From an uncultured Candidatus Saccharibacteria bacterium (GTDB lineage: Bacteria; Patescibacteriota; Minisyncoccia; Phycocordibacterales; UBA9973), in assembly GCA_964390875.1 (NCBI GenBank), contig CAYMIO010000001.1:49875-105003 (forward strand): a DNA stretch of 55,129 nt. Reading direction: 5' to 3'. Under the pieces are notes generated by a model. The model saw only the letters and a program-made list of their open reading frames with translations, made no database searches and was not told the DNA's origin. Below, in pieces: positions 33,077 through 54,284 of this stretch; within the stretch, counting starts at the first letter, position 1, and every line of letters starts with the position of its first letter. Position numbers and translations under genes: made by a program.

Positions 33077-35614
33077 ATGTCATTCCTAGAAAACCTATTT
33101 GGCGATACGGGTAAAAAGGCTCTCAGTGAGGCCCGCGCCATCGTGAAAGATATCAATATATTGGAAGAAGAAGTGAAAGCGCTTGCTGACACGGATTTTC
33201 CTCTAAAGACAGCAGAACTCAAAGAACGTATTTTGAAGGGAGAAACACTCGATGCGGTTCTTCCGTATGCGTTTGCGCTTGTGCGTGAGGCGGCACGCCG
33301 AACGCTCGGACAGAGACACTACGATGTGCAGCTTATCGGAGGTATTGTTCTTCATAAAGGAAACATTGCAGAAATGCGCACTGGTGAAGGTAAGACTCTC
33401 GTCTCCACACTCCCTGCATATTTGAATGCACTTACAGGACGCGGAGTGCATGTGGTGACAGTCAACGACTACCTCGCACGCCGCGACGCCGTGTGGATGG
33501 GACAAGTGCATTCATTCCTCGGCCTTACTCTTGGTGTGTTGAATGGACAAAATACTTCATATCGATATGATCCACTTCACAAAGAAGTCGATACTGAGCG
33601 CGACCAGGTTGGTTCATACCGTATCGTGTACGAATTTTTGAAACCATGCACTCGTGCTGAAGCCTATGCTGCCGATATCACGTATGGAACAAACAGCGAA
33701 TTTGGTTTCGACTATCTTCGCGACAATTTGGCCACGTCTCTTGATCGAGTTGTTCAGCGTGGACATGCGTATGCTATCGTCGACGAAATCGACTCTATCC
33801 TCATCGATGAAGCGCGAACACCGCTCATCATTTCTTCACAGTCAGGAGATTCTGAAGATCTTTATACAAAGTTTGCAACCATTGCTCGTGGGCTTATCAA
33901 AGACGAAGACTATACGGTAGACGAAAAGCATCGTTCTATTAGTCTGACTGACTCAGGTATTACGAAAGCAGAAAGTCTTCTTGGGCTTGAGAATATTTAT
34001 ACAGAAAAGGGAATAAAGTACGTGCATCATCTTGAAACAGCGGTTCGTGCCCAAGCTATTTTTATTCGCGACAAAGATTACGTTGTGAATAATAATGAAG
34101 TGATCATCGTGGATCCTTTCACCGGCCGCATGCAGCCAGGACGTCGCTGGAGCGAAGGTTTGCACCAAGCTGTCGAAGCAAAAGAAGGCGCGAAGATTGA
34201 AAAAGAAACACGTGCTGTTGCATCTATCACATACCAGAACTTTTTCCGTTTTTATGAAAAGCTTGGCGGCATGACAGGAACGGCTGCAACGTCAAAAGAA
34301 GAATTCTATAAAGTGTACGGACTCGATGTTGTCGCTATCCCGACTCACCGTGAGATTGCGCGTATCGACCGTGCCGATTTAATCTTCCAAAGTGAAGCAG
34401 CTAAATACAAAGCTATCGCAGCAAAGACGAAAGAGCTCCAAGACAAAGGCCAGCCTGTTCTTATCGGTACCATCTCGATTGAAAAGAACGAACTTCTTTC
34501 CGCGCATCTCACTTCTGCTGGTGTTCGCCACACAGTGCTGAACGCGAAGAACCACGAGAAAGAAGGCGAGATCGTCGCCAACGCCGGAAAAAAGGGAAGT
34601 GTCACTGTTGCCACCAACATGGCCGGTCGCGGTGTCGACATTCGTCTCGGAGGAGCAAATGCTACTGCTGAAGAAGCTGAAGAAGTAAAATCTCTCGGTG
34701 GACTTTTTGTTATCGGTACTGAAAGACATGAAGCGCGTCGTATCGACAACCAACTTCGCGGACGTGCAGGTCGTCAGGGTGACCCAGGCGAAACACAGTT
34801 TTATGTTTCGATGGATGATGACCTCATGCGTATCTTCGGTTCTGACAATATAAAAAATATGATGAAGCGTCTTGGTATTCCTGAAGACCAGCCTATCGAA
34901 CACCGCATGATCTCAAAAGCACTCGAAACGGCGCAGACTCGTATCGAAGGATTCAATTTTGATGCGCGAAAATACACACTTGAATACGATGACGTCATGA
35001 ACCAGCAACGAAAAGCTATCTACGCCCGCCGCCGCGCGATGCTTGAAGCTGATCGTGAAAAAATAGAAACCTATCTCTCAGATATTCTTGAAGAACACGA
35101 AGATAAAAAAGCGGTTGTGGCTGAGAGACGCGCTGCACTCGGTGATGACTCTTTCTTTGAAGCGGTGCGACGGATCATCCTCCATGTTACCGATGCGCTT
35201 TGGGTAGAACATATTGAGACTATGGAATATTATCGTTCCTCAGTGAACCTTCGCGCCTACGGTCAGCGTGAACCTCTCGTGGAATACAAAAAAGAAGGAC
35301 TCCGTCTTTTTAAAGACATGGAACACGAAACAAAAGCACAGATCTTGAATCTCATCACAACCCTTTCTGCTGATGTGCATATTACCGCACACAAAGAAGA
35401 GTCTCATCCTGTTGAAGGTGTAACGAGCCACGAAAGTATTCCTGTATTTCGTCAGGAGTCAGAAAATGAAATGCATCCCGACAAACGTATGCATATTGAA
35501 GAAGTGAAGCGCGAAATCGCCGAAACAAAGGAATCTGAAGTGCCGAAAGTGGGCCGCAACGACCCGTGTCCATGTGGAAGTGGAAAAAAATATAAAAAAT
35601 GTCACGGAGCGTAG
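33077..35614 (+). CDS. secA: preprotein translocase ATPase SecA
   Basis: [37 protein letters not shown], and the C-terminal zinc motif [14 protein letters not shown]. An extended -10 (TGCTATAAT) sits at 33042-33050. Confidence 0.95.
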
Positions 35615-35695: not shown

Positions 35696-38600
35696 ATGAT
35701 TTTTCCTCGACAAAAAATTGCGAGTCTTTTTTCTTTACACCTCCTTTTTCTGGTGATTCTTTTCAGTGTCTTTGGTGTGTTTACTCGCGACCTTGAAGCT
35801 GCGGCTGGTGTTCCGAAAATCATCAACTTCCAAGGACGACTGCTCGACTCGAGTGGAAACCTTCTCGGTGGTTCAGGGGGAACCAACTATTGTTATCGTT
35901 TTGCACTCTTCGATGATCCTGTTGTAGGACAAGGAACAAAGCTGTGGCCCGCAGGTACACCAACCACCAACACGATATCCACTCGGCTTGGTGTCTTCGA
36001 TGCATACATTGGTGTAGCAGATGCGCTCGACTACAATTTCCAAGATAATGATTCTGTATTCGTGAATGTGGAAGTCGCTGCACAGGTAGCGAACTCTTGT
36101 GTCGGTGTGAGTTTTGAAACACTTGGCCCTCGTCCTCGTGTCGTGTCATCGGCGTATGCTATCAACTCAGGAGCAGTCGGCGGATTCATTCCTTCTCAGT
36201 CTGCAACCAACAACGACATCCCAGTGCTCACATCCGGCGCCCTTATTCTCGGGCACAGTACGCCTGGCATCAGAGCAACAGGTTCCAATGCGCTCACATT
36301 TCAAAGTGGCGTCACTGGCGACATTCAATTTTTTGGTTCATCAAATAAAATAACTTCAAGTGGTGCGCTCACTATCGCCGGTACACTCACGGCAGGTTCA
36401 GGGTCGGAAGTACTCACTCTTGCGTCAGGAAAAATCGACGCCGATGCGCTGACTCTGATAGGTAGTGGAACAACGGGTTCTTCTTCGAGTCGTTCAGGTC
36501 TTCAAACGACCAGCGATGGACTTGGTCTTTTGCAAGGGTGTACCGACGGACAACTTCTCGAATGGACAGATGCTGGCGGATGGGCATGTGCCAATGACGA
36601 CACAGGTGGTGGCGGTTCGACGCTTCAGTCCGGATACGGCGCTGATGTTGATGGCAGTGATGTGACTATTTCTCTGACTTCAGCTGACGACTCTCTCATT
36701 TTCACAAATCCTGCTTCATCAGGTACCGACAGTGGTTTTCTTGCGCAGTTCAATCAAGCAAACACTACTGCTAATGTCACCGCACTCGATGTTGTGCAGC
36801 TCAGTAGTAACGCTGATGGTATTTCTCTTTTGAATGACAATACCCTCAACACAGGAACAGCGCTGGTGGTCAACCACTACGGTGCAGGTGTTGGCAATTT
36901 GGCAATGCGTATAAACGACGTAGTGGGTGACACAACACCACTTATCGTGGACGGTGACGGAAGACTTGGTATTGGTACGACGACCATCGAAGGAACAACA
37001 GAGCGATTGCTTCAAGTGGGTTCGCCGACACAAAGAGGTAACTCTACTACGTATGGTGAAGTTACCACTAAAGGCTTGACTGATATCACTGAACTCACCA
37101 ATATCCAAGATACCTTTTTGTACGACACCACCGCCGACAGTGACGGTGGTCGCTGGATCGACTGGGCAACCACCGACCAGCTTTCGTGGTATACCGAAAG
37201 TCTTGATGACAGTCCGAGTGACCCATGCAACATTACCACCGACGATCGTTGTTATTCAGCGAGTTTTCCTCGAAAGGCGCTCCTTGTTGTCACAACGGAC
37301 GCACTCTATATATATGATGCGACCAATAACGTGATGTGGATGAAGTTTACGCAGAACGCTGATGGATACGCGCTCGGTGTAGATACCAACAACGACCCTT
37401 CAAGTGTGACTGCACAAAACGGTGTGATCTACGTGGGTGCCAAAGGTACGGCTTCGGGTGGCTTGTATGCCTTCGATTTCGTGAATGACCGCATGTGGAA
37501 TTACAATGCCACAAACCGCGCTTCAGCAAACGTGGGAATAGGCGGTAGAAACAGTGCTGTCACATATGGAAGTGATGTGAATGCAAAACTTCAGCTTGAC
37601 CCAGTAGGTACCTCAGCTGAATGGATGAACGTGAACGATGTTTCTGCTACGGTGATCAACGGAAGTTTTACGGCTATTACTATCGGTGCTACTACCAATC
37701 TTTCTCCTCAAAACGGTATTACGTTTGTTGCTCTTGCTACCGACTCAGGTCTGACCCTCATTAACATCCCTGCTCAAAGACTCGTGCAATATTCGGATGT
37801 GACAGCCGACGACTATACCGCTGTGCATATCGATAGGACGGGATATCTTTATGGACTCAACACTACACAAGATCAGCTTGAACGTTGGGATAACGTCGAT
37901 ACCGACAAAGCATCTGAAGTGAACGGCGCGTTCAACGCAAAATGGGATGAAACGCAAGCAACTGGTCCGCAAATTGCGTCAGGTGTTTTCAATATATTAC
38001 CCAATGCACCTGACGCACTTGAAGTTGTTTCAAAAGGATCCGTTGCTGATAACGGTAGGTCAAACTTGATTTACGTCGGTCACAGTCTTGGTCTTGCTGA
38101 ACTTCACGACCACACTACACAGCTTTTTGGTCTTTCAAAACTTTTCAATACAACAAAACAAACGATGCTCATGAGTGGTCTCATCGACATGGCACTTATG
38201 ATGGATGATACGTCGGGTACACTCGCGCAAGATCAAGGTGTTGCAAATACCGATATGACAATTAAAGGGTCTCCTACGCTTGCGGTGAGTGGTGTACGTG
38301 GAAAAGCAATTCAATTTGATAATACGGATGATTACTTGTGTTCTGATGCCAATCAAGATGGAACATGCGATGTTGATACCGCGTTTAACATGAGCACCGT
38401 GGGTTGGACGCTCGGTATGTGGTTTAAACACTCCACCACAACTCCTAGTGCTCCACAAATCTTGTTTGAAAAGTGTGTGACTGCAGTACCTGCGCAAGCC
38501 GTGGGTTGTGTTGCTGCATATATGACAACGACTGGAACAATTGTCACTGCGATTGATGATGATGCCACGTGGACGAGAGGATCTTCATATGATCTTACAT

Positions 38601-41164
38601 CAACATCTTCAATAACCTATAACGACGATAAGTGGCACTATCTCGTTCTTTCCCGTACGAATGCAAATGATATGGATGCGTATCTTGATGGTAGTCCGCT
38701 CAACTTAAGTAATGCCACAGGTCTCACAACGACCGTGGATGGGAGTCAGATTGTAACCATAGGAGGTGGATGTAGTACAACAACGGGCGCCAATTGTGCT
38801 GCTGCAAACATAGGAAATGTATGGGATGGTGCTATCGACGATGTGACATTCCAAGTAGGAACAACCACACAAGCAACACTCACTCCAGCCCAAGTTCGTG
38901 CGTGGTATAACGATGCTCGTCCACTGGTAAGTAAGCGTGTGATCACTGTAGATAATGCCACTGCAGGAACATCAACAACAATTGAAGATACCGGTGAGTC
39001 GTGGATCCCCAATGAGTTTGCTGGACTGCATGTGACTATTACCGGCGGCACTGGTGCAGGTCAAACACGCCGTGTTATTTCTAATACCACAAATACTCTC
39101 ACTGTTTCTCCTGCGTGGTCTACGACTCCGGACACAACAAGTGATTTTGAAGTTGATCCTGAAGCGCTTTATGGTGCAAGTAATTCTGTCTACGCTATCG
39201 GTATCACTGCCGAAGCGCCGCTTGGTGAAGCACGCCAAATGTGTGTGGGTACGAATGATGGCTCTGATGGTGGTGGTGTTACGTGCTACAACCACCAAGC
39301 GGGTCCAAGCGTGATCGCTGAGATTTATCATAGCGACACTGAACAGACCGATGACTACGGTGTTGAGTGGACTGGTGCCGACTACGATGATATTCGCTCT
39401 ATTGACCTTTCTGGTCGTGCACTCATCATTGCGAGTGAGGCACACTTTTTGACTGAAACATCCGACGTGCGACTTGGGCAAGGTTTGGATTATCTTGCAA
39501 ACCAACTTTTCAATATTAGATCTGAAATACTCACCGACGGTATTGCGGTTACAGGTTCGCTCGGTTTTGAAGTGGGCTTCGTGGGAGGTGCCGACTTGGC
39601 TGAATATTACTATTCAAATACACCGCTGGTTCCAGGAGATGTGGTGGCGATAGAACCTGTTCAGCCCGCTGGTATCACGACATCAAAAACACCATATCAA
39701 GACAACCTCCTTGGTGTTGTATCTACGCAGCCAGGACTTATTCTTGGTCCTATCGCAGAAAATGCATACGCTATTGCTCTTGCGGGACGTATTCCGGTGA
39801 AGGTCACAACAGAAAATGGTCCAATACATGTAGGAGACCAGCTGACCTCATCGAGTCGGGAAGGGTTTGCGATGAAAGCCACCAAAGCTGGTGCAGTACT
39901 TGGTCGGGTGATCAACGAACCAAGTGGAATGGTTTCGTGTAGTGAACCGCTTCCACCTATTGAAGATGCGATAGGTAATGGTCCTGGTGTTGTGGGTATC
40001 CCCGATGAGCGAGGTGTTGTTGATATTATCAATACTGCGCTCGAAGAAAGAAATGTTGGCACACTCGAAAGTTCTCATTTGAAAACGCAAGAAGAGAGCG
40101 ACGAAGGTCCGTTGTGCGGATACGCGATGTTGTTTGTCGGTCTTGGAGAAACGCTTGGTGAAAATATTAGTTTGCTTGCAGAGCGACATGCGGAGCGCAT
40201 GGAAGCACTTCCTATCGTAGAAGGACTACTCGTGAGTGGTGTTGGGGATTCTATCGATGATGAACAAGAATCGATCATGGATTTCCTTCGTTCTGTCAAA
40301 GAAACTGCAGTAGAATCTTCTCTTTCATATGAAAGTATTTTTACCGATCGTATTGCCGCTGCAGTTGATATTCTGACGCCGTCACTCTATGCAGATGAAG
40401 TGATAACCGGAAAGATCCGCGTGCCAGTAGGGAAGGAGCTTGCATTCGATGGCCTCACGGTATTTGGTGGAGGTGCTCGATTCGCTGGTACGGTTCAGTT
40501 TGGTGCGCAGACAGAATTCTTGATGCCACCACTTTTCAACAAAGACACTGCTGGCTTTGCGATCATCAAAGAAGGAGATACTCGAGTGCGTGTGAAATTT
40601 GATGTGCCGTATGCGACAACTCCTGTTGTGAGCGCTTCGATGACATTTGAAGCGATAGATAATATCGACGCTATCGATCTTGCAGGATTGTTCGAAGAAC
40701 AATATCGATTTGTTGTATACAACAAAGATGTCGATGGTTTCACTATCGAGCTCAATAAACCCGCAACGCTCAACATTCGTTTTTCATGGGTTGCGCTTGG
40801 TGTGAAAGACGCAGCCGTGTTTGAAAGTGTGTTCGATGGGCTCATTATCGGTACACCGGAAACAGAAGAAGAGACACAAGGTGACGAACCCGCTGCTCAA
40901 ACTTCAGAAGAATCCGATCCACCACTTCCCGAAGAACTTGCCGAAGAATTTTTCATTGAAGTGATCGATGTGAACGACGCTGTCCCACCTGTTTCTATCA
41001 GCACAGAAGAGGGTAGTGTGAGCGAAGAAACAGTAGAACCTGATCCAGCAGAAGAAGAACCTCAAACTGTTTCTCAAGAAGAAGCGCCTGCTGATTCTTC
41101 AGATGAAAGTGAAGCAGAGCCTGCTTCTTCTTCATCAGAGCCGGTCGTTTCTGGGGAGTTTTAA
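35696..41164 (+). CDS. giant (1822 aa) surface protein: N-terminal signal/anchor, LamG-like domain, H-type-lectin-like domain, acidic tail
   Basis: The N-terminal helix [19 protein letters not shown] is followed by [16 protein letters not shown]. LamG_3-like region at about 38255-38910 ([13 protein letters not shown]...WTLGMWFK...[10 protein letters not shown]...LDGSPLN...[10 protein letters not shown]). H_lectin-like region at about 40575-40805 ([13 protein letters not shown]...DGFTIEL...FSWVALG). Glu/Pro/Ser-rich C-terminus. Confidence 0.85.
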
Positions 41165-41242: not shown

Positions 41243-41656
41243 ATGGTGTTATCTAGAAGTTTTGTATACAAATTGCTGCTTATCTTAGTGATACTTCTCG
41301 CGGGAACGTCTGTTTTTTTCTACAATAAATTTTCTAGCCTCAAAGCAAATCCCTCAAAAGCGGAAGAAGCTGAAGTCGAACGTCTTGTGGCGGTTATTGG
41401 TGAGCATATTGTGTTGCCAAAAGATGAAACTCCCACCGTGGCTACTGTGGCAGATCCTGATGCGCTCAAAGGCCAATCTTTCTTTGTTGATGCAAAGAAA
41501 GGAGACAAAGTTTTGATTTACACCAATGCAAAGAAGGCAATCCTCTATGATCCCACGGTAGACAAAATCATCACTGTGGCTCCACTGACTATCGGTGACT
41601 CACCGACCAATGCGGTAACACGAGAAGATATAGAAAAAGGAGAAGAAGAAAACTAA
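41243..41656 (+). CDS. small N-terminally anchored protein (137 aa)
   Basis: One TM helix (LLLILVILLAGTSVFFY) plus a ~100-aa extracytoplasmic domain. Sits 15 nt upstream of the next gene. Confidence 0.6.
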   Translation: MVLSRSFVYKLLLILVILLAGTSVFFYNKFSSLKANPSKAEEAEVERLVAVIGEHIVLPKDETPTVATVADPDALKGQSFFVDAKKGDKVLIYTNAKKAILYDPTVDKIITVAPLTIGDSPTNAVTREDIEKGEEEN

Positions 41657-41671: not shown

Positions 41672-42421
41672 ATGAACAATCCAGTGATTGCTTTGAAATA
41701 CATATTCGCACTCACACTGTTCTTCGTGGTTTCTGGTGCTGTCTTGGCTGCTGACCTTACGAGTGGAAGTTTTATTATTCGCGATCCGGTACTTGGTACA
41801 GGAAGTGGATATAGTTCTTCGGCTTCGTTTAGTGTACAGGGAAGCGGTAATCTCAATACCCAAGGATATGGTTCTTCAGCAAGCTTTATCGGAGAATATG
41901 GATTTTTATATTACCAGGCTCCTGTCGTGAGCCAGAGTATAACCTTCGAACTTTCTGATAGCACGCTCGCCTTCGGCTCGCTCTCATCTTCATCACCACG
42001 CTTTGCCACAGGCACGAGTGGATCGGGCACCGACAGTGTAGCGCATACTATTGTTATTGAAACGACTGCGCCCAGTGGATACTCTCTTCGATACACAGGA
42101 CTTCCGTTTTCATCGGGAGCAAGTGTTATCGATGCAGCTACTATTGTGAATGATGAGGATGGAACATCGGGTGTTGAGCAGTTTGGCATCAGTGCTTCTG
42201 TTTCCGACGATGCTGACGTTGCGGTCGGGTACGACCACAACGCTACACCCGCGAATAGAGATTGGAAATTTGTCGCTAACACTCCTGTAACGATTGTTTC
42301 AGAAGATGGTCAGACAGCGGCAGAAACGATCAATCTTTATTATCTTGCAAATATCGCAGCAAGTACTCCTGCTGGACAGTACGCTACAGAAATTACATAT
42401 ACGGTTACAGGTAATTTTTAA
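41672..42421 (+). CDS. secreted subunit with a WxL-like C-terminal module (Tyr-for-Trp variant)
   Basis: Signal peptide (VLA-AD). The C-terminal ~160 aa align by eye to the next gene: SITF..FG.LS..AHT..V.T.A..GY.L.Y.G...GT.G.EQF.IS...GYD...DW.FV...YLANIAA.T.AG.Y...ITY.VTGNF-stop. Confidence 0.7.
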   Translation: MNNPVIALKYIFALTLFFVVSGAVLAADLTSGSFIIRDPVLGTGSGYSSSASFSVQGSGNLNTQGYGSSASFIGEYGFLYYQAPVVSQSITFELSDSTLAFGSLSSSSPRFATGTSGSGTDSVAHTIVIETTAPSGYSLRYTGLPFSSGASVIDAATIVNDEDGTSGVEQFGISASVSDDADVAVGYDHNATPANRDWKFVANTPVTIVSEDGQTAAETINLYYLANIAASTPAGQYATEITYTVTGNF

Positions 42422-42536: not shown

Positions 42537-43604
42537 ATGTTTAAAAAAATCGTGAGTGGTGCGCTTGTAATACTGTTTGTGTGTGTGGTTAGTGGTATCC
42601 CGCAGGTTCTTTTCGCTGCTTCACTCACAGCACTTTCAGATACGATGTCCGACCAAAATGCGAGCGCTGCATCAAGTCACACTATCCGATTTACTACACC
42701 AACTGGAGCATCAGACAACACTGACACTATCATCATCACATTTCCTTCGGACTTTAACTTCACATCAAAGACTATTGGCTCAGTGTCTTTCACTCACGGA
42801 TCAACCACTGGTGCTGAAACAACAGAGACACTCGCATCGAGTGCCACTGGTAGTGCATGGGGTGCTGCGTTCTCAGGTACACAAAACCGTGTACTCACGC
42901 TCACTGCTCCAACCGATGGTGTCGGTGCAGCATCACTTGCAGCAAGCGACAAGGTTATCATCACGTACGATTCAACCAACTCCCTAAACCCAAGCTCAAC
43001 AGGTAGCTTCACCATAGCTATTACTGGTTCGTTTGGAGATACTGGTAACATTGCGATTCCTATCGTAGCTGGTGGTGCTGGTGACGACAGTGTGGCTATT
43101 ACTGCTAACGTAGATCCTTCCATCACATTTACAAACGATGACGCTGCTATTGGTTTTGGAACACTGTCAGCTTCAGCCGCAACCTACGCTAATGCAGGAG
43201 CGACTGGCTCAAGTTCAGATACTACAGCACACACGATGACTGTAGGTACGAACGCAGCTGGTGGATACACCATTACATACTCGGGAGCAACACTTACATC
43301 GGGTGGAAATACTATCACTGCTATTAACGCTGGTATAACTGATGACGCAAACGGTACTCCAGGTAGTGAACAGTTTGCTATCAGTGGTGCTCTTACCGGA
43401 ACAGGTTCTATGGCTTCAGGATACGACAACTCAGGTACTGCTGACTGGCGTTTTGTTCCAAGTACAACAACAACACTTGCTTCACATACTGGTGTTGTTT
43501 CTTCAGACAGCATTGCTATGCACTATCTTGCGAATATCGCAGCAAACACTGAAGCTGGTTCGTACTCAAATACCATTACCTATATCGCAACCGGTAACTT
43601 CTAG
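42537..43604 (+). CDS. secreted subunit, paralog of the previous gene (same C-terminal module plus an extra N-terminal beta-rich domain)
   Basis: Signal peptide (LFA-AS). Ends ...HYLANIAANTEAGSYSNTITYIATGNF. Thr/Ser/Gly/Ala-rich. Confidence 0.7.
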   Translation: MFKKIVSGALVILFVCVVSGIPQVLFAASLTALSDTMSDQNASAASSHTIRFTTPTGASDNTDTIIITFPSDFNFTSKTIGSVSFTHGSTTGAETTETLASSATGSAWGAAFSGTQNRVLTLTAPTDGVGAASLAASDKVIITYDSTNSLNPSSTGSFTIAITGSFGDTGNIAIPIVAGGAGDDSVAITANVDPSITFTNDDAAIGFGTLSASAATYANAGATGSSSDTTAHTMTVGTNAAGGYTITYSGATLTSGGNTITAINAGITDDANGTPGSEQFAISGALTGTGSMASGYDNSGTADWRFVPSTTTTLASHTGVVSSDSIAMHYLANIAANTEAGSYSNTITYIATGNF

Positions 43605-43615
43605 CGAGACCCACA

Positions 43616-44635
43616 ATGCAAAAAGGATTGCTTTATTACATACAGCGCGCTGTCCTACTCTCACTCTTTTTTCTCGCTCTTCCGTTTGGAGCACACGCGC
43701 TGACGCTCACACCTGTACGCCATGAACTTCGCGGAGATCCCGGTGAGACTATTCGTGAGACGGTAACTCTCATCAACGAGAAGTCTACAGGCGAAACATT
43801 CTATACATCATTTGCAAATTTTGAAGCAGAAGGTGAGAGTGGTAGTCCTAGTTTTGTTGAACCAATAGAAGGTGTGGGAACATGGATCGTCACCAACTCT
43901 TCGGTTTATGTAGCTCCTAATAGTTCAAAAGAAGTTGAATTGTCTATTACGATTCCAAAGAGCGCAAATCCTGGAGGATATTTCGGCGCTGTCTTTTTTG
44001 GAACATCTCCTTCTTCTTCAGCTGGTGAAGTCGCTATCGGTTCCAAGATTGGTGTACTCGTACTTCTCACTGTTAATGGTGAAGTAAGTAAAGATGGAGG
44101 TGTCCTTGAATTTGCGACGAAAGATATGCAGAAATGGTACACAGCGCTCCCTGTCCCACTGTACTATCGTTTTCAAAATGCCGGAGGCGACCGTATAAAA
44201 CCAGAAGGTGAAATTCTTGTACGCAACCTTATCGGTTTAATCGCTGCTCGCATTCCTGCCAACCAAGTCCAGGGAAACATTCTCCCAAGTTCAACTCGAA
44301 GGTTTGAAGTGCTCTGGCAATCAAAACATGGAAGCTCTGAACCTCACGAAGGAGGATTGGGCTTTTTCCAAGCAGTGTCATACCAGTGGAACAATTTTGC
44401 GTTTGGAAGGTATGTGGCGCACCTTGATCTGACTCATTCAGGAAATGAGTTACACCACAAAGCAAAGTATTCGTTCTGGGTATTTCCATGGCAGCTCTTG
44501 ATCGTTGTTGGTGTGGGCCTACTCGTTTTCGTGACTCTTCTTAGAAAAGGTCTTGCGCGCTACAACGCGTGGATTATTAAGAAAGCACGAATCTCACTTG
44601 ATACCACTCATCAAAACAACAGCAAAGAAAAGTAA
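43616..44635 (+). CDS. CscA-like protein (DUF916/DUF3324-like, i.e. WxL-interacting-protein architecture) with a C-terminal TM anchor
   Basis: Signal peptide (AHA-LT). LTLTPVRHEL..GETIRETVTLINEKS, VAPNSSKEVELSITIPKSANPGGYFGAVFF, GVLVLLTVNGEV, ILPSSTRRFEV. The C-terminal helix LLIVVGVGLLVFVTLL is followed by a basic tail. Sits 11 nt after the previous gene. Confidence 0.65.
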   Translation: MQKGLLYYIQRAVLLSLFFLALPFGAHALTLTPVRHELRGDPGETIRETVTLINEKSTGETFYTSFANFEAEGESGSPSFVEPIEGVGTWIVTNSSVYVAPNSSKEVELSITIPKSANPGGYFGAVFFGTSPSSSAGEVAIGSKIGVLVLLTVNGEVSKDGGVLEFATKDMQKWYTALPVPLYYRFQNAGGDRIKPEGEILVRNLIGLIAARIPANQVQGNILPSSTRRFEVLWQSKHGSSEPHEGGLGFFQAVSYQWNNFAFGRYVAHLDLTHSGNELHHKAKYSFWVFPWQLLIVVGVGLLVFVTLLRKGLARYNAWIIKKARISLDTTHQNNSKEK

Positions 44636-45575
44636 ATCTGCGTGGACAGTATTCTTTTTCCATACAGGAGCTTTTCTTGTACTCGTGTCGCTATTTTGCG
44701 GACCTGTTTCTTCGCATGTGGTGAATGCGGCAGCTGAAAGTGTTTCTATTCAAGCCATCGTGTCTGGAGCTCCGGAAGAAGAACCATCTGGTGGGGGAGG
44801 TGGCGGAGGAAGTCCGTCTCCTTCGGAAGAAACAGAAGATGAGATTGTCGTTCCCCCATCTTCGGTGTTTTTTTCAGGAGTTGCGTATCCTGAAGCGTCA
44901 GTCTTCCTTCTCAAAAACGGCCAGCAGGCAGAAAAAACAATAGCGCGTACTGACGCTGCGTTTTCAATACTGTTACCCGATCTTACTCCAGGGTCATATA
45001 CCTTTTCGGTTGTTGCCGAAGATGCCAATGGGCGCCGTTCTACGCTGCGCACGTTTCCGATTCGCGTTTCAGAAAATGTGGCGACGACGATCTCTGATAT
45101 TTTGATCTCACCTACAGTGTATGTGAATCTTTCTTCTGTGGTCAAAGGAGAACCACTTGTTGTTTCAGGGTACGGAGCTCCGCTGGCATCTGTGGTACTC
45201 ACTCTGCGCTCCGCTGTTTCATCTTTTTTCTCTCTTCCCACTACCGTGAGTGGAGAATATACTACAACGCTTGATACCGCAGTTTTGCCGCTCGGAAGTT
45301 ACCAAGCATCAGCGCATACTCTTTTTGCTGATGAAAGTGAGAGTCCGGAAAGTGCACTTATATCTTTTTCTATAAATGACCAAGAACTTCCGTTTCCTGA
45401 AGAAACATACACACCTGCTGATATCAACTACGACATGCGAGTGAACCTTGTTGATTTTTCAATTCTCGCGTATTGGTATAACAAAGACGTTCCACCAGCA
45501 AAAGTCGATTTGAATGGCGATGGACGTGTCACGATTACTGATTTTAGTATGCTTGCGTATGCGTGGACAGGATAA
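44553..45575 (+). CDS. secreted protein with two Ig-like repeats and a C-terminal dockerin-like module
   Basis: Signal peptide (VNA-AAE) and a poly-Gly linker. The C-terminus DINYDMRVNLVDFSILAYWY...DLNGDGRVTITDFSMLAYAW forms the two dockerin Ca-binding segments. The start is uncertain (ATG 44553 or in-frame TTG 44598). Both overlap the upstream gene. Confidence 0.7.
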   Translation: MRATTRGLLRKHESHLIPLIKTTAKKSKSAWTVFFFHTGAFLVLVSLFCGPVSSHVVNAAAESVSIQAIVSGAPEEEPSGGGGGGGSPSPSEETEDEIVVPPSSVFFSGVAYPEASVFLLKNGQQAEKTIARTDAAFSILLPDLTPGSYTFSVVAEDANGRRSTLRTFPIRVSENVATTISDILISPTVYVNLSSVVKGEPLVVSGYGAPLASVVLTLRSAVSSFFSLPTTVSGEYTTTLDTAVLPLGSYQASAHTLFADESESPESALISFSINDQELPFPEETYTPADINYDMRVNLVDFSILAYWYNKDVPPAKVDLNGDGRVTITDFSMLAYAWTG

Positions 45576-46464
45576 AAAATGGTTTTTTGCTGTTAGTGTT
45601 GTGTGTGCTCTTGTATTGTCGCCAGGGTCTCTTTTTGCTGCGCGAGTCTATTTTGAATCAGGACGTCCCGCGCACACTTCTTCATCTGAACTGCGGTATG
45701 TGGATGTGATGCTCGATACTGAAGGTGTCCCTGTAAACGCAGTATCTCTTGAAGTTGAATTTGATGATGAGGCTCTTTCTTTTGTCTCTTCACAACACGA
45801 CGATAGTATAGTGACTTCGTGGTTTGTTGCACCACAAGTAAATGGTAATCACGTTGTTCTTTCGGGAATCATGGCGGGAGGTTTTGATGCAGTGATCGAT
45901 CCTGTCTCAAAAGAATTACTCCCTGGTCGTATTGCTCGTCTTATGTTTTCGTCGCAGAAGGAGGTGGAGACCGTACTTTCTTTTACTGAAGCATCGCTGG
46001 CCCTTCATGATGGCCAAGGCACACCAGAGATTCCTAAAACAGAATCAATCCGACTCTTAAGCGGAAGCGATGTTCCACCATCAGATACATTGCCAGTTGA
46101 TACTGATCCGCCAGAAGTATTTATTCCGATGGTTGGCAAGGACGCTGCACTTTTTGATGGAAAGTATTTTCTTGTGTTTGAAACCAAAGACCGCGGTTCA
46201 GGTGTTGCGTACTATGAAGTGAAAGAAGGTCGTGGTGTGTGGCAACGCGCAGTGAGCCCGTACGAAATTCAGGACCAGACTCTTCGCAAGCAGCTCTTTG
46301 TGAAGGCAGTGGATGTTGAGGGCAATGTTCTCACTGTTAAAACGTTTGAACGAGATTTGTACCTCACATGGGTTGCTATTGTAATAGGCGGCGGCGCTCT
46401 TTTAGGTATCGTGTTTCTTCGCGTATTGAAAAAACGCATGAATCCGACTATACTACATCAATGA
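45559..46464 (+). CDS. membrane-anchored cohesin-like protein 1
   Basis: Signal peptide. Cohesin-like segment VDVMLDTEGVPVNAVSLEVEFDDEALSFVSS...VVLSGIMAGG...ARLMFSS. C-terminal TM helix WVAIVIGGGALLGIVFL followed by RVLKKR. Overlaps the upstream stop by 17 nt. Confidence 0.65.
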   Translation: MRGQDKKWFFAVSVVCALVLSPGSLFAARVYFESGRPAHTSSSELRYVDVMLDTEGVPVNAVSLEVEFDDEALSFVSSQHDDSIVTSWFVAPQVNGNHVVLSGIMAGGFDAVIDPVSKELLPGRIARLMFSSQKEVETVLSFTEASLALHDGQGTPEIPKTESIRLLSGSDVPPSDTLPVDTDPPEVFIPMVGKDAALFDGKYFLVFETKDRGSGVAYYEVKEGRGVWQRAVSPYEIQDQTLRKQLFVKAVDVEGNVLTVKTFERDLYLTWVAIVIGGGALLGIVFLRVLKKRMNPTILHQ

Positions 46465-47468
46465 TACGATCGGTACGCTTTTTTCTGTCCACGCTCGCAG
46501 TGTGTATTGTTTTCATATGTATACCAGTACACGGAACGCTTTTTGCGGCTTCGTTTGGTTTTGCGCCCAACGCAACTGATATTTCTGTAGGGGAACAGTT
46601 CTCAGTGGAGGTGTACACTAACACAACCGGAATGTCCGTAAACGCCATTTCAGGAACCGTGAAATATATGCCGGGGATGTTTGATGTTGTTTCTGTTCGA
46701 AAGTCCGATGCGATCTCCTTTTGGGTTAAGGAGCCAAAAGCTGAAAACGGCTCTATTCTTTTTGAAGGCATCGCTCTTGATCCAGGTGTGTCAGGTCCGC
46801 GCGTTCCAGTACTTACTGTCATACTCAAAGCAAAACAAAGCGGTGTTTCTGAAATGAAAATCACCAATGCTTCTATTTTGAAAAATGACGGGCTGGGCAC
46901 AAACGTTTTAAACGGTCTTGCGTCTTTACAACTCAAAGTGCGCGCGAGTTCTGTTTCGGTTGGTGCACTATCGGCGTCTTCTAGTGTGGAAGCAAACTCG
47001 ACTCCACTGGCTTACGATACGTTTGCTCTTCCTGTTATCACCGACTATTCAGCCGTTGTTTCTTCTGGTGGACGTTTGTTTGTGAAAGGTAAAGGGGAAC
47101 CAAATGCCCTTACACTCATTCAATTTAAAAAACTATCACCGCCGACCTTTGGACAGCGAATGCTCAGTGTGATGGGTGATCGAGAATCTGCCACACTCTC
47201 TGACGTGTATGTTATCAACAGTGCTGACGGAAGTTTTGAGTATGTATCCAGTCGTCCTGTATCTCCTGGCTTGTATAGCGCTATTCCGTCGCTTGTGGGG
47301 AATGGTATTGAAAAGAAAACACCAGGTTTGGGTGCTCAGGTAAATGTGATTGCGAGCCGTAAAGATTTTTTCTTGGCACAAGTAGTGGATTGGGCAGTGA
47401 TGCTTATACCCGTCATGCTTCTTGCGGTGCTCACCGTTCTTGTCTATCGTAAAAAACAGGTACAGTAA
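46461..47468 (+). CDS. membrane-anchored cohesin-like protein 2
   Basis: Signal peptide. FGFAPNATDISVGEQFSVEVYTNTTGMSVNAISGTVKYMPGMFDVVSV...ILFEGIALDPGVSG...VLTVILKAKQSG is cohesin-like. C-terminal TM helix followed by YRKK. ATGA start/stop overlap with the upstream gene. Confidence 0.7.
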   Translation: MIRSVRFFLSTLAVCIVFICIPVHGTLFAASFGFAPNATDISVGEQFSVEVYTNTTGMSVNAISGTVKYMPGMFDVVSVRKSDAISFWVKEPKAENGSILFEGIALDPGVSGPRVPVLTVILKAKQSGVSEMKITNASILKNDGLGTNVLNGLASLQLKVRASSVSVGALSASSSVEANSTPLAYDTFALPVITDYSAVVSSGGRLFVKGKGEPNALTLIQFKKLSPPTFGQRMLSVMGDRESATLSDVYVINSADGSFEYVSSRPVSPGLYSAIPSLVGNGIEKKTPGLGAQVNVIASRKDFFLAQVVDWAVMLIPVMLLAVLTVLVYRKKQVQ

Positions 47469-47517: not shown

Positions 47518-48645
47518 ATGAATATGTTTCGTAGTCGACGATCGGCACTGTGCGGATATTTTCTTCTTTTGGTGTGCCTCCTTACATTGCCTGGATATAG
47601 TCGTGCAATGAAACAGGAAAGCATTTTGAGTCCTGATGAAGTGGCGTGGATGAACGCGCATGGAAATACCATCGTTGTGCAGCCGGGAGTCAACGTCCCT
47701 CCTTTTTCTTTCGTGCGAGAACACCAGAATAATAGTTTTCCTCAAGGATATGGTATCGACTTCATTGGCCGTGTTGCTGAAGCTCTTGACCTTAAGGTTG
47801 AGTACCGAGAAGCACAGACGCTCACCGACATGCTTGAAGGTGTAAAAGACGGTGAGCCTGTTGTTCTCGTCTCACTCGCAAAAACACCAGCACGTGAAGA
47901 GAGTTTTATTTTTACTGAGCCGTATGTTAGTTTGCCCGCTGTTTTTGTCGTTCGGTCTGATTCTCCTTTTCCTGAAAATAGAACGACTGTTAAAGATTTT
48001 AAAGGAAAAACAATTGCTGTTGCTCGGGACTCCTCACCTCATGAGTTTTTGAAAATAAACCACCCTGAGCTTACACTTGATCTCACGGTTGATGGTGAGG
48101 CTAGCTTAAAGAAAATGCTCCTTGGTGAGGTGGACGCTGCTGTACTGAATATTGCCTCGCTTTCGTACTTTATTTCAAATTCAGGGCTTTCTTCTATTCA
48201 TATTGCTGGTCCAGTAGGGTTTGATTCTGAGCTTGCCTTTGCTATTCCCAAAGATTCACCTGAGCTTGCTTCGATCATTCAAAAAGGAATGAATATGGTT
48301 ACTCAGTCTCAGCGTGAGTTTTTACGGGCAAAATGGATCAATTTCGAAGCACCAAGCGGTGTAGCCTATACGAGTTCAGCGCAGCCTCTTTGGGCAGATT
48401 ACGCTGTTCCGGCAGTCTTTGTGCTGGTACTTATCTTGATCGTAGTCGTGTCTACTCGAATGTTCATTCCACGTCCCGATTCTTTCCTTTCACACGTGAA
48501 AAAGGGTGTTACGCGAAAGCAAGAGGCACTGGATAAGCTCAAACAGCTCGAACAAGCCGAGGAATTACTCGAAGCGGAGCTTCGAGCGGTGAGGGAAGTG
48601 GAGAAAACCGTCGAAAAGAACCTTGGTGACCTTTCGTCTAACTAA
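47518..48645 (+). CDS. membrane-anchored solute-binding (SBP_bac_3-like) protein with a short cytoplasmic coiled coil
   Basis: Signal peptide, a family-3 SBP domain (PPFSF...GYGIDF...FTEPY...KGKTIAV...), one TM helix (YAVPAVFVLVLILIVVV) and a ~55-aa charged helical tail. An extended -10 (TGATATACT) lies 7 nt upstream of the ATG. Confidence 0.75.
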   Translation: MNMFRSRRSALCGYFLLLVCLLTLPGYSRAMKQESILSPDEVAWMNAHGNTIVVQPGVNVPPFSFVREHQNNSFPQGYGIDFIGRVAEALDLKVEYREAQTLTDMLEGVKDGEPVVLVSLAKTPAREESFIFTEPYVSLPAVFVVRSDSPFPENRTTVKDFKGKTIAVARDSSPHEFLKINHPELTLDLTVDGEASLKKMLLGEVDAAVLNIASLSYFISNSGLSSIHIAGPVGFDSELAFAIPKDSPELASIIQKGMNMVTQSQREFLRAKWINFEAPSGVAYTSSAQPLWADYAVPAVFVLVLILIVVVSTRMFIPRPDSFLSHVKKGVTRKQEALDKLKQLEQAEELLEAELRAVREVEKTVEKNLGDLSSN

Positions 48646-51320: not shown

Positions 51321-54284
51321 ATGAAGAATGTATTTTTTAGAAAAGTGATGAGTCTTTTCACTGTCTTTGCACTTGTGGCAATGTATGGTGGATACGGAAC
51401 AACACAGGTGTTCGCTAACGAAGACGTACCTGTCGTTGAAACAACAACAGAGGAAACTCCTGTTGAAGTTGTTGAAGAAAACCAAGAAGAACAGGTAGAA
51501 GAAGTTGTTGAGGAGGAAACTGTTCCAGAAACAGAAGAAACAACAACAGAAGAACAGGGTGGAGAAGTTCTTGGTGAAGAAACAAAAGAGCTTCCGGTTG
51601 TTGAAGAACAGCGTGTACAAACAGTGGTAGAAGAAGGTGCATGTTCTGTTATTACAACAACTATTGTTTCTGACACTTCAAACATTGTCCAAGAAACAGG
51701 AAACCCTGCGGTAAAGGCATGGGAGCACCCAAACTGGGCAGATATCTCAGGTGCTGACTGGATCTGGGAATCATACCAGGTTGCAAATCCTCTCGTATTC
51801 CGCACTGTCGATTTCACTAAAGAGTTCACTATTGATGGCACTGTTACAGAAGCAACTCTTGAAATCGCAGCTGACAACTACTTTACGTTTGACCTCAACG
51901 GAAACGAGGTTCTTTCACGCACAGAAAGTGACGATACTTCAGGGTCTGTAGGATACAACTTCCAGAGTACCTACTCTGCTGATGCGATGGGTATGATCAC
52001 TTCTGGTGAAAATACCATCGATCTTGAAGTCACCAACCGTGCGTCTTCAATGAACAGCGTAACTCTCAACCCCGCTGGTGTTGTGTATAAGCTCACTGTT
52101 GTTTCAGAAGACTGTGGCGATGAAGAAGAAACAGCAACCGTACACGCAACAAAAATCGTGTGTGACAGTGAAGCTGACCTTCCCAACTGGGGTGCAGGAA
52201 ATGTTGTAGGCAGTATCAACTCTGCGACAGCATCACTCTTCCTTGATGAACACGAAGAATCATGTCACGAAGAAGATTGGACATTTGAATGGTCTCTTGA
52301 TGGTGTAGGAAACCCTGGAGACAATGGTCAGATGGGTGGTGAAGGATGGAATGCCTTTACTGATACAACTGATATTCCAACTGGCCGAATCTGGTTCCGT
52401 GAACAGATGCAAGATGGATACATTTTCTTTACAGGAGCAAATACAACAGAAACTGTTTCAGCTGAAATCTACTGTGGAAGTGATGTGCTCAATTACGACA
52501 ACTGGGAATATATTGATGCGGTAGATGGTGGTGAATACTACTGTGTGGCATTCAATGCTCCAGTCGAAGTTCCATACGTCTGTGATCCAGAAATCAATTT
52601 GATTGAAAATGGTAGTTTTGAAAACCCTGACATTTCAACTGGTACATACGAGATCGTAAAAGACTTGAACGAAGATGTTACGTCAGTGCTCGCATGGCTC
52701 GTCGCATGGACAACACCAGAAGACGGTGGACGCCTCGGTCTTGAAGTCCAAGATCATGTTGCTGGAAACCCAGCAGTCGGTGCCGGCGACCAATTCGCAG
52801 AACTTGATGGTGATCACCCAACCGCTATTTCACAAGACGTTGAAACAGTGGCTGGTGAACCATACACACTCACATTCATGTACTCTCCTCGTCAGGGACG
52901 AAATGCCGCAGACAACATGATTGAAGTTCAAAAAGACGGTGCTGTTCTTGGAGATGTACTCGCTGCTGATGGTACAGCAAACAGTGACACTGCATGGGCA
53001 ACTTACACTCGCACCTTTATCGCAGATGACTCTTCAACAACAATCTCGTTTGTTGATACAGGTACTGACACAAGCTTTGGTGGTTACCTCGACGAAGTAC
53101 GTCTCTCATGTGGTACACCGGTTGTAGACGATGAAGAAAGTACAATCACTGTTACTAAAATCGTTGTAGGGAATGATGCGTTTGATTCATCAGACTTTCC
53201 TCTCTATGTGAACGAAACATCGGTGGTTTCTGGTATTGCGTCAGAATTTGAACCAGGAACATACACAGTCTACGAATCAAGCAACGCTGATTTCATTCCG
53301 ACATTCTCAGGTGCTTGTGTTGCCGATGAAAGTAACGAATCTCGCATTGCATTGATCGAAGACTTCCAAGCAAAAAAGACTGCTCTTGAAAATGCTATCG
53401 CTGCATCTCCTGAAGATGTAGAAGGAAATCAAATCAAAACAGATATGATTTTCGACATCAATGAAAAGATCGTAGCACTTCAGAATTCTCTCAGTGCAAC
53501 CATTGACCTTTCAGAAGGTGAAGATGCAGAATGTGTTATCACAAATACATACACACCAGTTGTCGTAGATGACTTCCCTCAGTGTTCTGATGGTGAAGAC
53601 AACGATGAAGACGGTCTTTCAGACGAACTTGATCCAGGATGTCACACTGATGGTGATCCAACTGACGAAGATGAAGTAGACAGCTACGATCCAGAGGATG
53701 ATGACGAAACAAATACGACAGAAGAAGTAGTCTACGCATGTTCTGACGATGCCGACAACGACGAAGATGGCCTTACTGATGCCAATGACCCAGGCTGTCA
53801 CTCAGACGGTGATGCAACCGATGAAGATGACACCTACGTTCCAACAGACAACGACGAAACTAATGACACTTCATCTAATACAAACGGTGGAGGTGGTTCA
53901 TCAGGCAGTCGCGGTGGTGGTGGAAGTGTTCTTGGAGAAGTACTCGGTGCCTCAACTTCATGCGGCATCTACCTCAATGAATACATCATCAAAGGTTCAA
54001 CAAAGAACAATCCAGCAGAAATCATGAAGCTCCAGACATTCTTGAACAACTACATGAATACTGGTCTTACGGTCAGTGGCGTGTACGATGCAGCTACTAT
54101 TGCTGCCCTCAACGCCTTCCAGCTCAAAGAATGGCTTCTCGTGCTTCGCCCATGGGGTATTACAGCACCGACAGGAAATACATATCTCACGACACAACTC
54201 CGAATCAACAACATCATGTGTCCAGAATTGAACCTTTCTGTCTTTCCTCCGCTCCATACGATCCCTGCAGCGATGAAGCTCTAA
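51321..54284 (+). CDS. large surface protein: signal peptide, Glu-rich spacer, DUF642-like carbohydrate-binding-type domain, two TSP3-like Ca-binding repeats, Gly-rich linker, PG_binding_1-like C-terminus
   Basis: 987 aa. IENGSFENP...GDQFAELDG...GGYLDEVRLSC. Then CSDGEDNDEDGLSDELDPGCHTDGDPTDEDE and CSDDADNDEDGLTDANDPGCHSDGDATDEDD. The C-terminus carries IMKLQTFLNNYMNTGLTVSGVYDAATIAALNAFQ. Confidence 0.85.
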   Translation: MKNVFFRKVMSLFTVFALVAMYGGYGTTQVFANEDVPVVETTTEETPVEVVEENQEEQVEEVVEEETVPETEETTTEEQGGEVLGEETKELPVVEEQRVQTVVEEGACSVITTTIVSDTSNIVQETGNPAVKAWEHPNWADISGADWIWESYQVANPLVFRTVDFTKEFTIDGTVTEATLEIAADNYFTFDLNGNEVLSRTESDDTSGSVGYNFQSTYSADAMGMITSGENTIDLEVTNRASSMNSVTLNPAGVVYKLTVVSEDCGDEEETATVHATKIVCDSEADLPNWGAGNVVGSINSATASLFLDEHEESCHEEDWTFEWSLDGVGNPGDNGQMGGEGWNAFTDTTDIPTGRIWFREQMQDGYIFFTGANTTETVSAEIYCGSDVLNYDNWEYIDAVDGGEYYCVAFNAPVEVPYVCDPEINLIENGSFENPDISTGTYEIVKDLNEDVTSVLAWLVAWTTPEDGGRLGLEVQDHVAGNPAVGAGDQFAELDGDHPTAISQDVETVAGEPYTLTFMYSPRQGRNAADNMIEVQKDGAVLGDVLAADGTANSDTAWATYTRTFIADDSSTTISFVDTGTDTSFGGYLDEVRLSCGTPVVDDEESTITVTKIVVGNDAFDSSDFPLYVNETSVVSGIASEFEPGTYTVYESSNADFIPTFSGACVADESNESRIALIEDFQAKKTALENAIAASPEDVEGNQIKTDMIFDINEKIVALQNSLSATIDLSEGEDAECVITNTYTPVVVDDFPQCSDGEDNDEDGLSDELDPGCHTDGDPTDEDEVDSYDPEDDDETNTTEEVVYACSDDADNDEDGLTDANDPGCHSDGDATDEDDTYVPTDNDETNDTSSNTNGGGGSSGSRGGGGSVLGEVLGASTSCGIYLNEYIIKGSTKNNPAEIMKLQTFLNNYMNTGLTVSGVYDAATIAALNAFQLKEWLLVLRPWGITAPTGNTYLTTQLRINNIMCPELNLSVFPPLHTIPAAMKL

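Follow-up and report, generated by a model that had tools for sequence, protein, structure and literature searches.

Patescibacteria account for much of bacterial diversity, and the members cultivated so far are found attached to host cells. Little is understood of how such cells, which have neither an outer membrane nor a sortase-type pilus assembly, build and retain their surface appendages. The DNA considered here is a 55,129-nucleotide stretch of contig CAYMIO010000001.1, assigned to an uncultured Candidatus Saccharibacteria bacterium (the window, whose first letter is position 1 of all the coordinates given here). It carries three overlapping genes, the first encoding a secreted protein that ends in a dockerin (gene 1) and the other two encoding membrane-anchored proteins with a predicted cohesin fold (gene 2 or cohesin-A, and gene 3 or cohesin-B). 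This trio is a conserved and widespread 1:1:1 module of Patescibacteria. As to its role, the evidence seems to us evenly balanced for a non-cellulosomal cohesin-dockerin module that anchors a cell-surface fibre of the recently described Pam type.

The dockerin of gene 1 and the predicted cohesin folds of genes 2 and 3

Gene 1 (44598..45575, +), taken from the list of open reading frames (ORFs) with its start placed by homologue alignment, encodes a secreted protein composed of a strand, a linker, two immunoglobulin (Ig)-like domains and a C-terminal dockerin (45417..45572, +). Residues 289-334 of its reading frame match Dockerin_1 (PF00404) at a score of 29.7 bits (gathering cut-off 22.9; E 7.4e-7), and the region has the two tandem segments of ~22 residues, each an EF-hand-like Ca loop followed by a helix, by which dockerins are recognised. 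Both segments, DINYDMRVNLVDFSILAYWY and DLNGDGRVTITDFSMLAYAW, bear the Ca-ligand positions D1, N3, D5 and D12, which are 82-100% conserved in the two segments across 120 gene 1 homologues. The segments are 55% identical to each other in the window copy, with a mean of 58% across the 120 homologues. Their helices carry the motif DFSI(L/M)AY(W/Y), and positions 10-11 are occupied by hydrophobic L-V, unlike the Ser-Thr found there in canonical type I dockerins. When the single gene 1 sequence was searched against PDB sequences, the dockerin matches were weak. Judged by these sequence features, the C-terminus of gene 1 is a true dockerin, as a preliminary description of this DNA had proposed for the two-segment module that ends the gene, and a dockerin was present in 120/120 of the gene 1 homologues listed.

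The body of the protein (44865..45398, +) consists of two tandem Ig-like domains, supported by a weak Big_6 match (PF17936, residues 103-167, E 1.3e-4) and by the body hidden Markov model (HMM) of the family, which spans residues 61-282. The NCBIfam model Ca_tandemer scored 24.9 bits on gene 1, under its cut-off. The gene 1 family has at least 168 homologues, and most of them carry PF00404 plus PF17936. No enzyme domain was found in gene 1, and neither a glycoside hydrolase nor a carbohydrate-binding module (CBM) in gene 1 or the 120 homologues, in agreement with the earlier proposal that a body of two Ig-like domains has a structural or adhesive role rather than one in polysaccharide degradation.

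The reading frame of gene 1 is open from TTG 44553, previously given as its start, and closes with the stop TAA at 45573-45575. Homologue alignment favours another start, TTG 44598, which is aligned with the Met of the closest homologue (65% identity). Because every homologue has a short basic segment and then a hydrophobic core at its start, gene 1 most likely starts at 44598, not 44553, and has a signal peptide. As read from the sequence, this peptide (44598..44729, +) comprises a basic n-region, a hydrophobic core and a VNA/AA motif at which cleavage is predicted. It is followed by a conserved column block with the beta-strand motif ESVSIQAIV (44736..44762, +), proposed here as a donor strand, and by a linker rich in Gly, Pro, Ser and acidic residues (44763-44864, +). 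With TTG 44598 as start, gene 1 has a 38 nt overlap with the upstream gene at 43616-44635. The public gene call for an identical gene 1 protein (284 aa) uses a later start, at an internal GTG, and is without the signal peptide.

The overlaps within the trio were exactly those noted before, and they agree with the translational coupling read from them at that time. Gene 2 (45559..46464, +) starts with the ATG at 45559, within the end of gene 1 (17-nt overlap), and the ATGA at 46461-46464 holds both the start of gene 3 (46461..47468, +) and the stop of gene 2 (4-nt overlap). A scan for consensus promoters and terminators revealed no strong + strand terminator within the cluster and was otherwise uninformative. 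To assign the products of genes 2 and 3, AlphaFold2 models were built on family alignments (mean predicted local distance difference test, pLDDT, of 82.8 for gene 2 and 81.9 for gene 3) and searched against the PDB with Foldseek. Both models run from an N-terminal signal helix through a beta-sandwich and a disordered linker to a second beta domain, and end in a helix taken as transmembrane (TM), so that both proteins are predicted to be type I membrane proteins, and the order of signal peptide, cohesin-like sandwich, second beta domain and TM helix read earlier from the sequence was recovered. In gene 2 these parts are the signal peptide (45559-45639), the cohesin fold (45640-46062), an FN3/OmpL47-like domain with a weak OmpL47-type match (46126-46344) and the TM helix (46354-46431). 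In gene 3 they are the signal peptide (46461-46547), the cohesin fold (46548-46943), an Ig-like domain (47031-47348) and the TM helix (about 47358-47450).

Pfam bore out the earlier assignment of the dockerin, with a PF00404 score above cut-off, and did not bear out that of the cohesins: gene 2 had no match, PF00963 Cohesin included, and gene 3 reached 12.5-12.8 bits with PF00963, under the cut-off of 24.1. This family was matched by 3/15 gene 2 homologues and 4/28 gene 3 homologues (best E 6e-7), and automated pipelines label some relatives 'cohesin domain-containing protein'. Single-sequence searches of genes 2 and 3 against PDB sequences gave nothing significant. With the family profiles, R. 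flavefaciens cohesins came out on top at E 0.08-0.6, which is not significant, and the sequence signal is therefore insufficient alone.

At the level of predicted structure, the first 49 Foldseek matches of gene 2 were all cohesins, and cohesins were also the best single-domain matches of gene 3, Ig and antibody chains being interleaved at low TM scores. The top match of both genes was 2w1n, the cohesin+FN3 double module of C. perfringens GH84C (E 1.3e-11 for gene 3), whose two-domain layout they share. The closest structural matches were thus the C. perfringens GH84C/GH33 cohesins (2w1n, 2vo8, 2jh2) and the A. fulgidus cohesin 2xdh. The TMt values of the two genes were 0.79-0.81 with 2vo8 (0.81 for gene 3; root-mean-square deviation, rmsd, 2.6-2.9 A) and 0.76-0.77 with 2xdh, the rmsd to the two structures spanning 2.6-3.1 A. 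PapD-like or usher-like proteins were in neither list. Genes 2 and 3 are thus shown by modelling to have a cohesin fold, yet their window sequences are not members of Pfam Cohesin. The N-terminal domains of the two proteins aligned with each other over 162 columns (hhalign probability 99.8%, E 1e-29), and on this profile evidence their cohesin domains are paralogous. Two other origins of the domain were rejected on profile comparison: that of a diverged Pam pilin N-terminal sandwich (hhalign probability 4%) and a relationship to the chaperone-like protein encoded upstream (hhalign 36%, with only the TM aligned).

Non-cellulosomal cohesin-dockerin pairs are already known from C. perfringens toxin and glycoside hydrolase complexes and from A. 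fulgidus, and the trio resembles these in lying outside cellulose degradation and in numbering few modules per genome. In C. perfringens the modules are borne by secreted glycoside hydrolases or toxins, whereas the trio cohesins are predicted single-pass membrane proteins and their dockerin protein is without an enzyme. Cell-bound single cohesins that take a dockerin partner also occur among the anchoring scaffoldins of cellulosomes, such as the type I cohesins of C. thermocellum OlpA/OlpC (3ul4 and 4dh2, both among the Foldseek matches of gene 2). Scaffoldins of this type are anchored to the wall via S-layer homology (SLH) modules and receive enzymes or other scaffoldins, whereas in the trio the anchor would be a TM helix and the partner a non-enzymatic connector.

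Conservation of the trio among Patescibacteria

Relatives of all three proteins were numerous and came essentially all from Patescibacteria metagenome genomes. The cohesin-B alignment, run against GTDB species represented by one genome each, produced 539 confirmed matches, for 80 of which the loci were fetched; a genome scan using the gene 2 protein alone (cohesin-A as a single sequence) produced no matches. The titles of the fetched loci name Paceibacterota, Nomura-, Kaiser-, Yanofsky-, Colwell- and Magasanikbacteria, together with third-party annotation (TPA) bins generically labelled 'Saccharibacteria', and the ~9 of 80 loci titled 'uncultured Gammaproteobacteria' are probably mislabelled bins. 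With family HMMs, the order dockerin, cohesin-A, cohesin-B on the same strand was detected in 71/82 independent loci. Among the 11/82 that depart from it, 9 are contigs that end inside the trio, one is without cohesin-B (L003) and one without cohesin-A (L045). A second dockerin protein was found in 1/76 dockerin-positive loci and the 55-kb window holds the dockerin of gene 1 alone, so the earlier description of the dockerin as self-contained holds locally.

An exhaustive search with the cohesin-A family profile retrieved 9494 cluster representatives at E<=1e-3, of which 2770 reached E<=1e-30. The majority of the representatives are about 290-310 aa long and share one architecture. Given the order kept in 71 of the 82 loci, the single dockerin per neighbourhood and the large family, the trio is to be regarded as a conserved 1:1:1 module. 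With thousands of 50%-identity clusters in the family, an assigned function would annotate a conserved block of 'hypothetical' genes of the candidate phyla radiation (CPR). Among the top 147 cohesin-A representatives, ~20 (in the P0178-P0218 range) were fusions of cohesin-A to cohesin-B with the gene order kept, some of them without an internal TM helix, and none was a fusion of dockerin to cohesin. The fusions are either true or merged gene calls; true ones would support one shared complex. A search of the literature on cohesin and dockerin in CPR, Patescibacteria and Parcubacteria found no account of the trio, which appears to be undescribed in the literature searched, as do its linkage to a Pam-type operon and the idea, discussed below, of the trio as a substitute for PamR's TM anchor.

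The sole second dockerin protein lies ~7 kb downstream of the trio in its locus (L006:17946-20864); it is ~972 aa long, with a C-terminal dockerin detected by the family HMM at E 7e-13. The FN3/OmpL47-like domain of cohesin-A also turns up in giant proteins (1600-4300 aa), where 10-31 copies are arranged in tandem (P0174-P0177, P0183, P0187, P0194, P0318). The essential dockerin-domain protein SEML1_0315 of Southlakia epibionticum was considered as a trio gene and rejected, being a stand-alone 927-aa protein in an unrelated neighbourhood (PMC10633639).

The upstream Pam-type pilin operon and a possible anchoring role

The trio constitutes the 3' part of a longer conserved cluster that reads, in the window, giant protein, 137-aa protein, two pilin paralogues, 339-aa protein, trio and SBP_bac_3 protein, and this order recurs in L001 and many other loci. 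The pilins are of the newly described Pam type, reported from Ca. Mycosynbacter amalyticus (preprint 10.64898/2026.03.03.709456, bioRxiv 2026). According to this preprint, a Pam pilin is made up of an N-terminal sandwich, a linker strand and an Ig-like C-terminal domain that is truncated and open, and each subunit donates its linker strand to the C-terminal domain of its neighbour. PamC and PamD are described as chaperones of the PapD-like type that end in a TM helix. In PamR, two FnIII domains are preceded by an extra N-terminal strand and followed by a TM helix; the protein is proposed there to insert its strand into the last pilin, end growth and anchor the filament to the membrane. The words 'cohesin' and 'dockerin' do not occur in the preprint. 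It places Pam pilins mainly in Saccharimonadia and Microgenomatia, whereas the trio loci are mostly labelled Paceibacterota or Parcubacteria-group and the Pam-like operon described here is in a Paceibacteria-type genome.

The pilin nearer to the trio (42537..43604, +) has an N-terminal domain, the linker strand VAITANV and a C-terminal Pam pilin domain, matching NCBIfam NF058581 (CPR_Pam_pilin_C) at 61 bits, above the cut-off of 55. Its smaller paralogue (41672..42421, +) reaches 62.2 bits with this model (cut-off 55) but only 48.1 bits with the PamT equivalog model NF058579, whose cut-off is 240. It can be called PamT-like, though no equivalog, and is a candidate tip subunit. NF058581 was matched by 20/25 members of the pilin family, with a best E of 5.8e-46. 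The 339-aa protein (43616..44635, +) is chaperone-like and membrane-anchored: a signal peptide precedes two beta domains, and a TM segment lies at the C-terminus. It is a candidate analogue of PamC/PamD, and its gene lies directly 5' of gene 1 in most loci. Its family matched WxLIP_PGBD/DUF916 and fn3_5 weakly, the former in 20/23 members (best E 1.8e-4); the window protein scored 16.3 bits with WxLIP_PGBD, under the cut-off of 27.3, and had no match among PDB profiles. In a census of the 46 loci that include 5 kb or more of DNA 5' of gene 1, a pilin with the Pam C-terminal domain and a chaperone-like gene were both present in 32, a chaperone-like gene only in 4, and neither in 10. The preliminary description, sound in its domain calls, had missed this context and read gene 1 as the cargo of two anchored receptors; gene 1 is rather a probable connector, with a pilin-like strand at its N-terminus and a dockerin at its C-terminus.

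The operon upstream of the trio also resembles the WxL clusters of Gram-positives, for which PMC10599100 describes a small WxL protein, a large WxL protein and a WxLIP protein (PF06030/DUF3324) of the build DUF916-DUF3324-TM, its abstract making no mention of a cohesin-dockerin component. Both have a small subunit, a larger one that shares its C-terminal domain and a protein of two Ig domains with a C-terminal TM, and in some loci also a giant protein ending in the shared C-terminal domain. The WxL domain itself (PF13731) had no Pfam-level match in the cluster and the DUF916 matches were sub-threshold, so it is not classed here as a WxL cluster. The weak DUF916 matches and the logic of the cluster together hint that Pam pili and WxL clusters are evolutionarily linked. 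To our knowledge, WxL clusters are generally without a cohesin-dockerin component.

Ahead of its Ig domains, the gene 1 family has a short strand (consensus EDVxISAxV) and then a Gly-rich or otherwise flexible linker. The linker strand of the neighbouring pilin family, which reads (D)DxVx(V/I)(T/S)A(T)V, follows the same pattern. This likeness was quantified with a position-specific scoring matrix (PSSM) made from the 7-residue core of the pilin linker (consensus VNVTATV) and scored on the pre-Ig region of the gene 1 family. The median score was 12.3 bits for the gene 1 family versus -1.0 for shuffles and -2.5 for other ORFs (Mann-Whitney p of 1.8e-10 and 5e-14), and 27/48 gene 1 family members scored above the 95th percentile of shuffles versus 40/1297 other ORFs. 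Comparison of gene 1 with the pilin by hhalign gave a probability of 6%.

Gene 1 resembles PamR in several respects. Each is encoded, together with Pam pilins and membrane-anchored chaperone-like proteins, in an operon of a CPR bacterium; each combines a signal peptide with an additional N-terminal strand and a tandem pair of Ig/FnIII-like domains; and for each a basal, membrane-tethering role is proposed. The difference is at the C-terminus, where PamR has its own TM helix and gene 1 a dockerin, whose anchor would be provided in trans by two cohesin-TM proteins. By analogy, gene 1 could be described as a PamR in which a dockerin has taken the place of the TM helix; it is not itself a PamR and may act like one. 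On the mechanism that we propose, Sec would export all three products. Cohesin-A and cohesin-B would then be held in the cytoplasmic membrane by their C-terminal TM helices, each displaying its cohesin on a short Ig/FN3 stalk, and gene 1, freed from its signal peptide, would fold its dockerin round two Ca2+ ions. This dockerin would plug Ca-dependently into one or both cohesins, forming a non-covalent membrane tether, while the N-terminal strand, on its flexible Gly-rich leash, would slot into the last pilin, whose C-terminal Ig-like domain is open. In this way gene 1 would cap the base of a Pam-type filament and join it to the membrane cohesins, the job proposed for PamR. Because the dockerin is near-symmetric and the two cohesins are constant and sometimes fused, binding could follow a dual mode, with either cohesin, or form a ternary bridge, two options between which the data do not discriminate. 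The wider proposal, that across much of the Patescibacteria the Pam-type pilus is anchored by such a Ca2+-dependent cohesin-dockerin joint in place of a transmembrane subunit, with gene 1 as a PamR-like terminator that possibly bridges both cohesins, is put forward tentatively, its chances being in our estimate somewhat below even.

Several results weigh against an anchoring role of the trio. The cohesin domains of the window themselves miss the Pfam Cohesin threshold, and the Pam assembly model is itself the prediction of a preprint. Relatives of gene 1 ending in a TM, which would link it to PamR, were absent from the 120 homologues, and the NCBIfam Pam models did not match gene 1. The strand of the window copy, at a PSSM score of 6.98 against a 95th percentile of 7.0, is borderline. 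No locus-specific covariation between strand and linker was detected (3.44 of 7 observed versus 3.60 permuted, with a few motifs mis-picked by the regular expression), so that the likeness of the gene 1 strand to the pilin linker would be mimicry at the family level only. Moreover, the 10/46 loci in which the trio occurs and neither Pam pilins nor a chaperone were detected indicate that it is not strictly dependent on them. The pilin-less loci, the missing covariation and the borderline strand would all suit a stand-alone surface display module, as suggested by the preliminary description, in which the membrane cohesins hold an Ig-Ig-dockerin stalk or adhesin that has no link to a filament and the operon reflects co-regulation only. 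We consider this explanation unlikely, though one to be taken seriously, as it leaves unaccounted for the strand and Gly leash that mimic the pilin linker at the family level and the tight, conserved order of pilin, chaperone-like gene and gene 1. It also sits poorly with the pilin-less clade (e.g. L055, L066, L076, L084), in which gene 1 is longer and its N-terminal region is PamT-like.

The sub-threshold Pfam score of the window cohesins could be taken in another sense, especially with a fold as versatile as the beta-sandwich: the cohesin-fold proteins might be filament assembly factors, that is, platform proteins or pilin chaperones, and the dockerin might bind peptidoglycan, a glycan or another protein. 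The Pam system, which is proposed to lack a dedicated trans-envelope machine (10.64898/2026.03.03.709456), has room for further factors of this kind. Such a role nevertheless appears improbable to us when cohesins make up the top 49 fold matches of gene 2 and the best single-domain matches of gene 3, when neither Foldseek list contains a PapD-like or usher-like protein, and when the cohesin-fold domain has no profile similarity to the pilins or the chaperone-like protein; in addition, direct pairing is the simplest explanation for the strict 1:1:1 linkage to a bona fide dockerin. Cohesin and dockerin modules found together also bring to mind a minimal cellulosome-like system that arrays polysaccharide-degrading enzymes. 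This idea is effectively refuted, given that the dockerin protein and its 120 homologues carry no glycoside hydrolase or CBM, that there is one dockerin per neighbourhood and that each protein has a single cohesin, not the series of a multi-cohesin scaffoldin.

If the trio does anchor Pam-type filaments, the Pam system would gain its missing basal component in lineages without a TM-bearing PamR, and cohesin-dockerin biology would reach from the organisation of enzymes to the anchoring of filaments, this being its first use as a pilus-to-membrane coupling. The anchor would also be releasable, which could explain why Pam filaments are reported to be easily untethered, and it would offer a simple experimental handle in its dependence on Ca or sensitivity to EDTA (ethylenediaminetetraacetic acid), with three small proteins that can be expressed recombinantly.

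Other genes of the cluster and variant loci

The cluster is headed by a secreted giant protein of 1822 aa (35696..41164, +), which had no Pfam or NCBIfam match and whose homologues head related clusters. In L003 (2-6799) and L034 (2-5896) the giant protein exceeds 1900 aa and ends in the Pam pilin C-terminal domain, so that it could be a giant tip or adhesin subunit; the window copy is without that domain. Directly 5' of the giant-protein gene, on the same strand, is a full-length SecA gene (33077-35614). The giant protein is followed by the 137-aa protein (41243..41656, +), which has an N-terminal TM, is conserved upstream in many loci and matched no family. At the other end of the cluster, a solute-binding protein (SBP) family 3 domain protein is encoded at 47518..48645 (+; ORF open from 47422), with an SBP_bac_3 match at E 1.3e-18. 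It comes after cohesin-B in most Paceibacteria-type loci, is duplicated in L015, L016 and L017, and could serve the cluster as a sensor or in an accessory capacity. As read from the sequence, it has a hydrophobic C-terminal segment and a charged tail.

In the clade formed by L046, L050, L054-L056, L066, L067, L073, L076 and L084, gene 1 is ~430-450 aa long, its N-terminal region being PamT-like, and cohesin-B ~560-600 aa. Separate pilin and chaperone-like genes were not detected in this clade, and L054, L056 and L084 have a third cohesin protein.

Two further proteins of the window carry PG_binding_1 domains. That at 51321-54284 is a secreted protein of 987 aa with DUF642, a C-terminal PG_binding_1 and two acidic repeats of the form DNDEDGL(S/T)D..DPGCH(T/S)DGD, which from their sequence look Ca-binding and are not dockerins. 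The other (11547-13700), of 717 aa, has purple-acid-phosphatase-N/fn3 repeats and two PG_binding_1 domains, and is a probable wall-associated surface protein.

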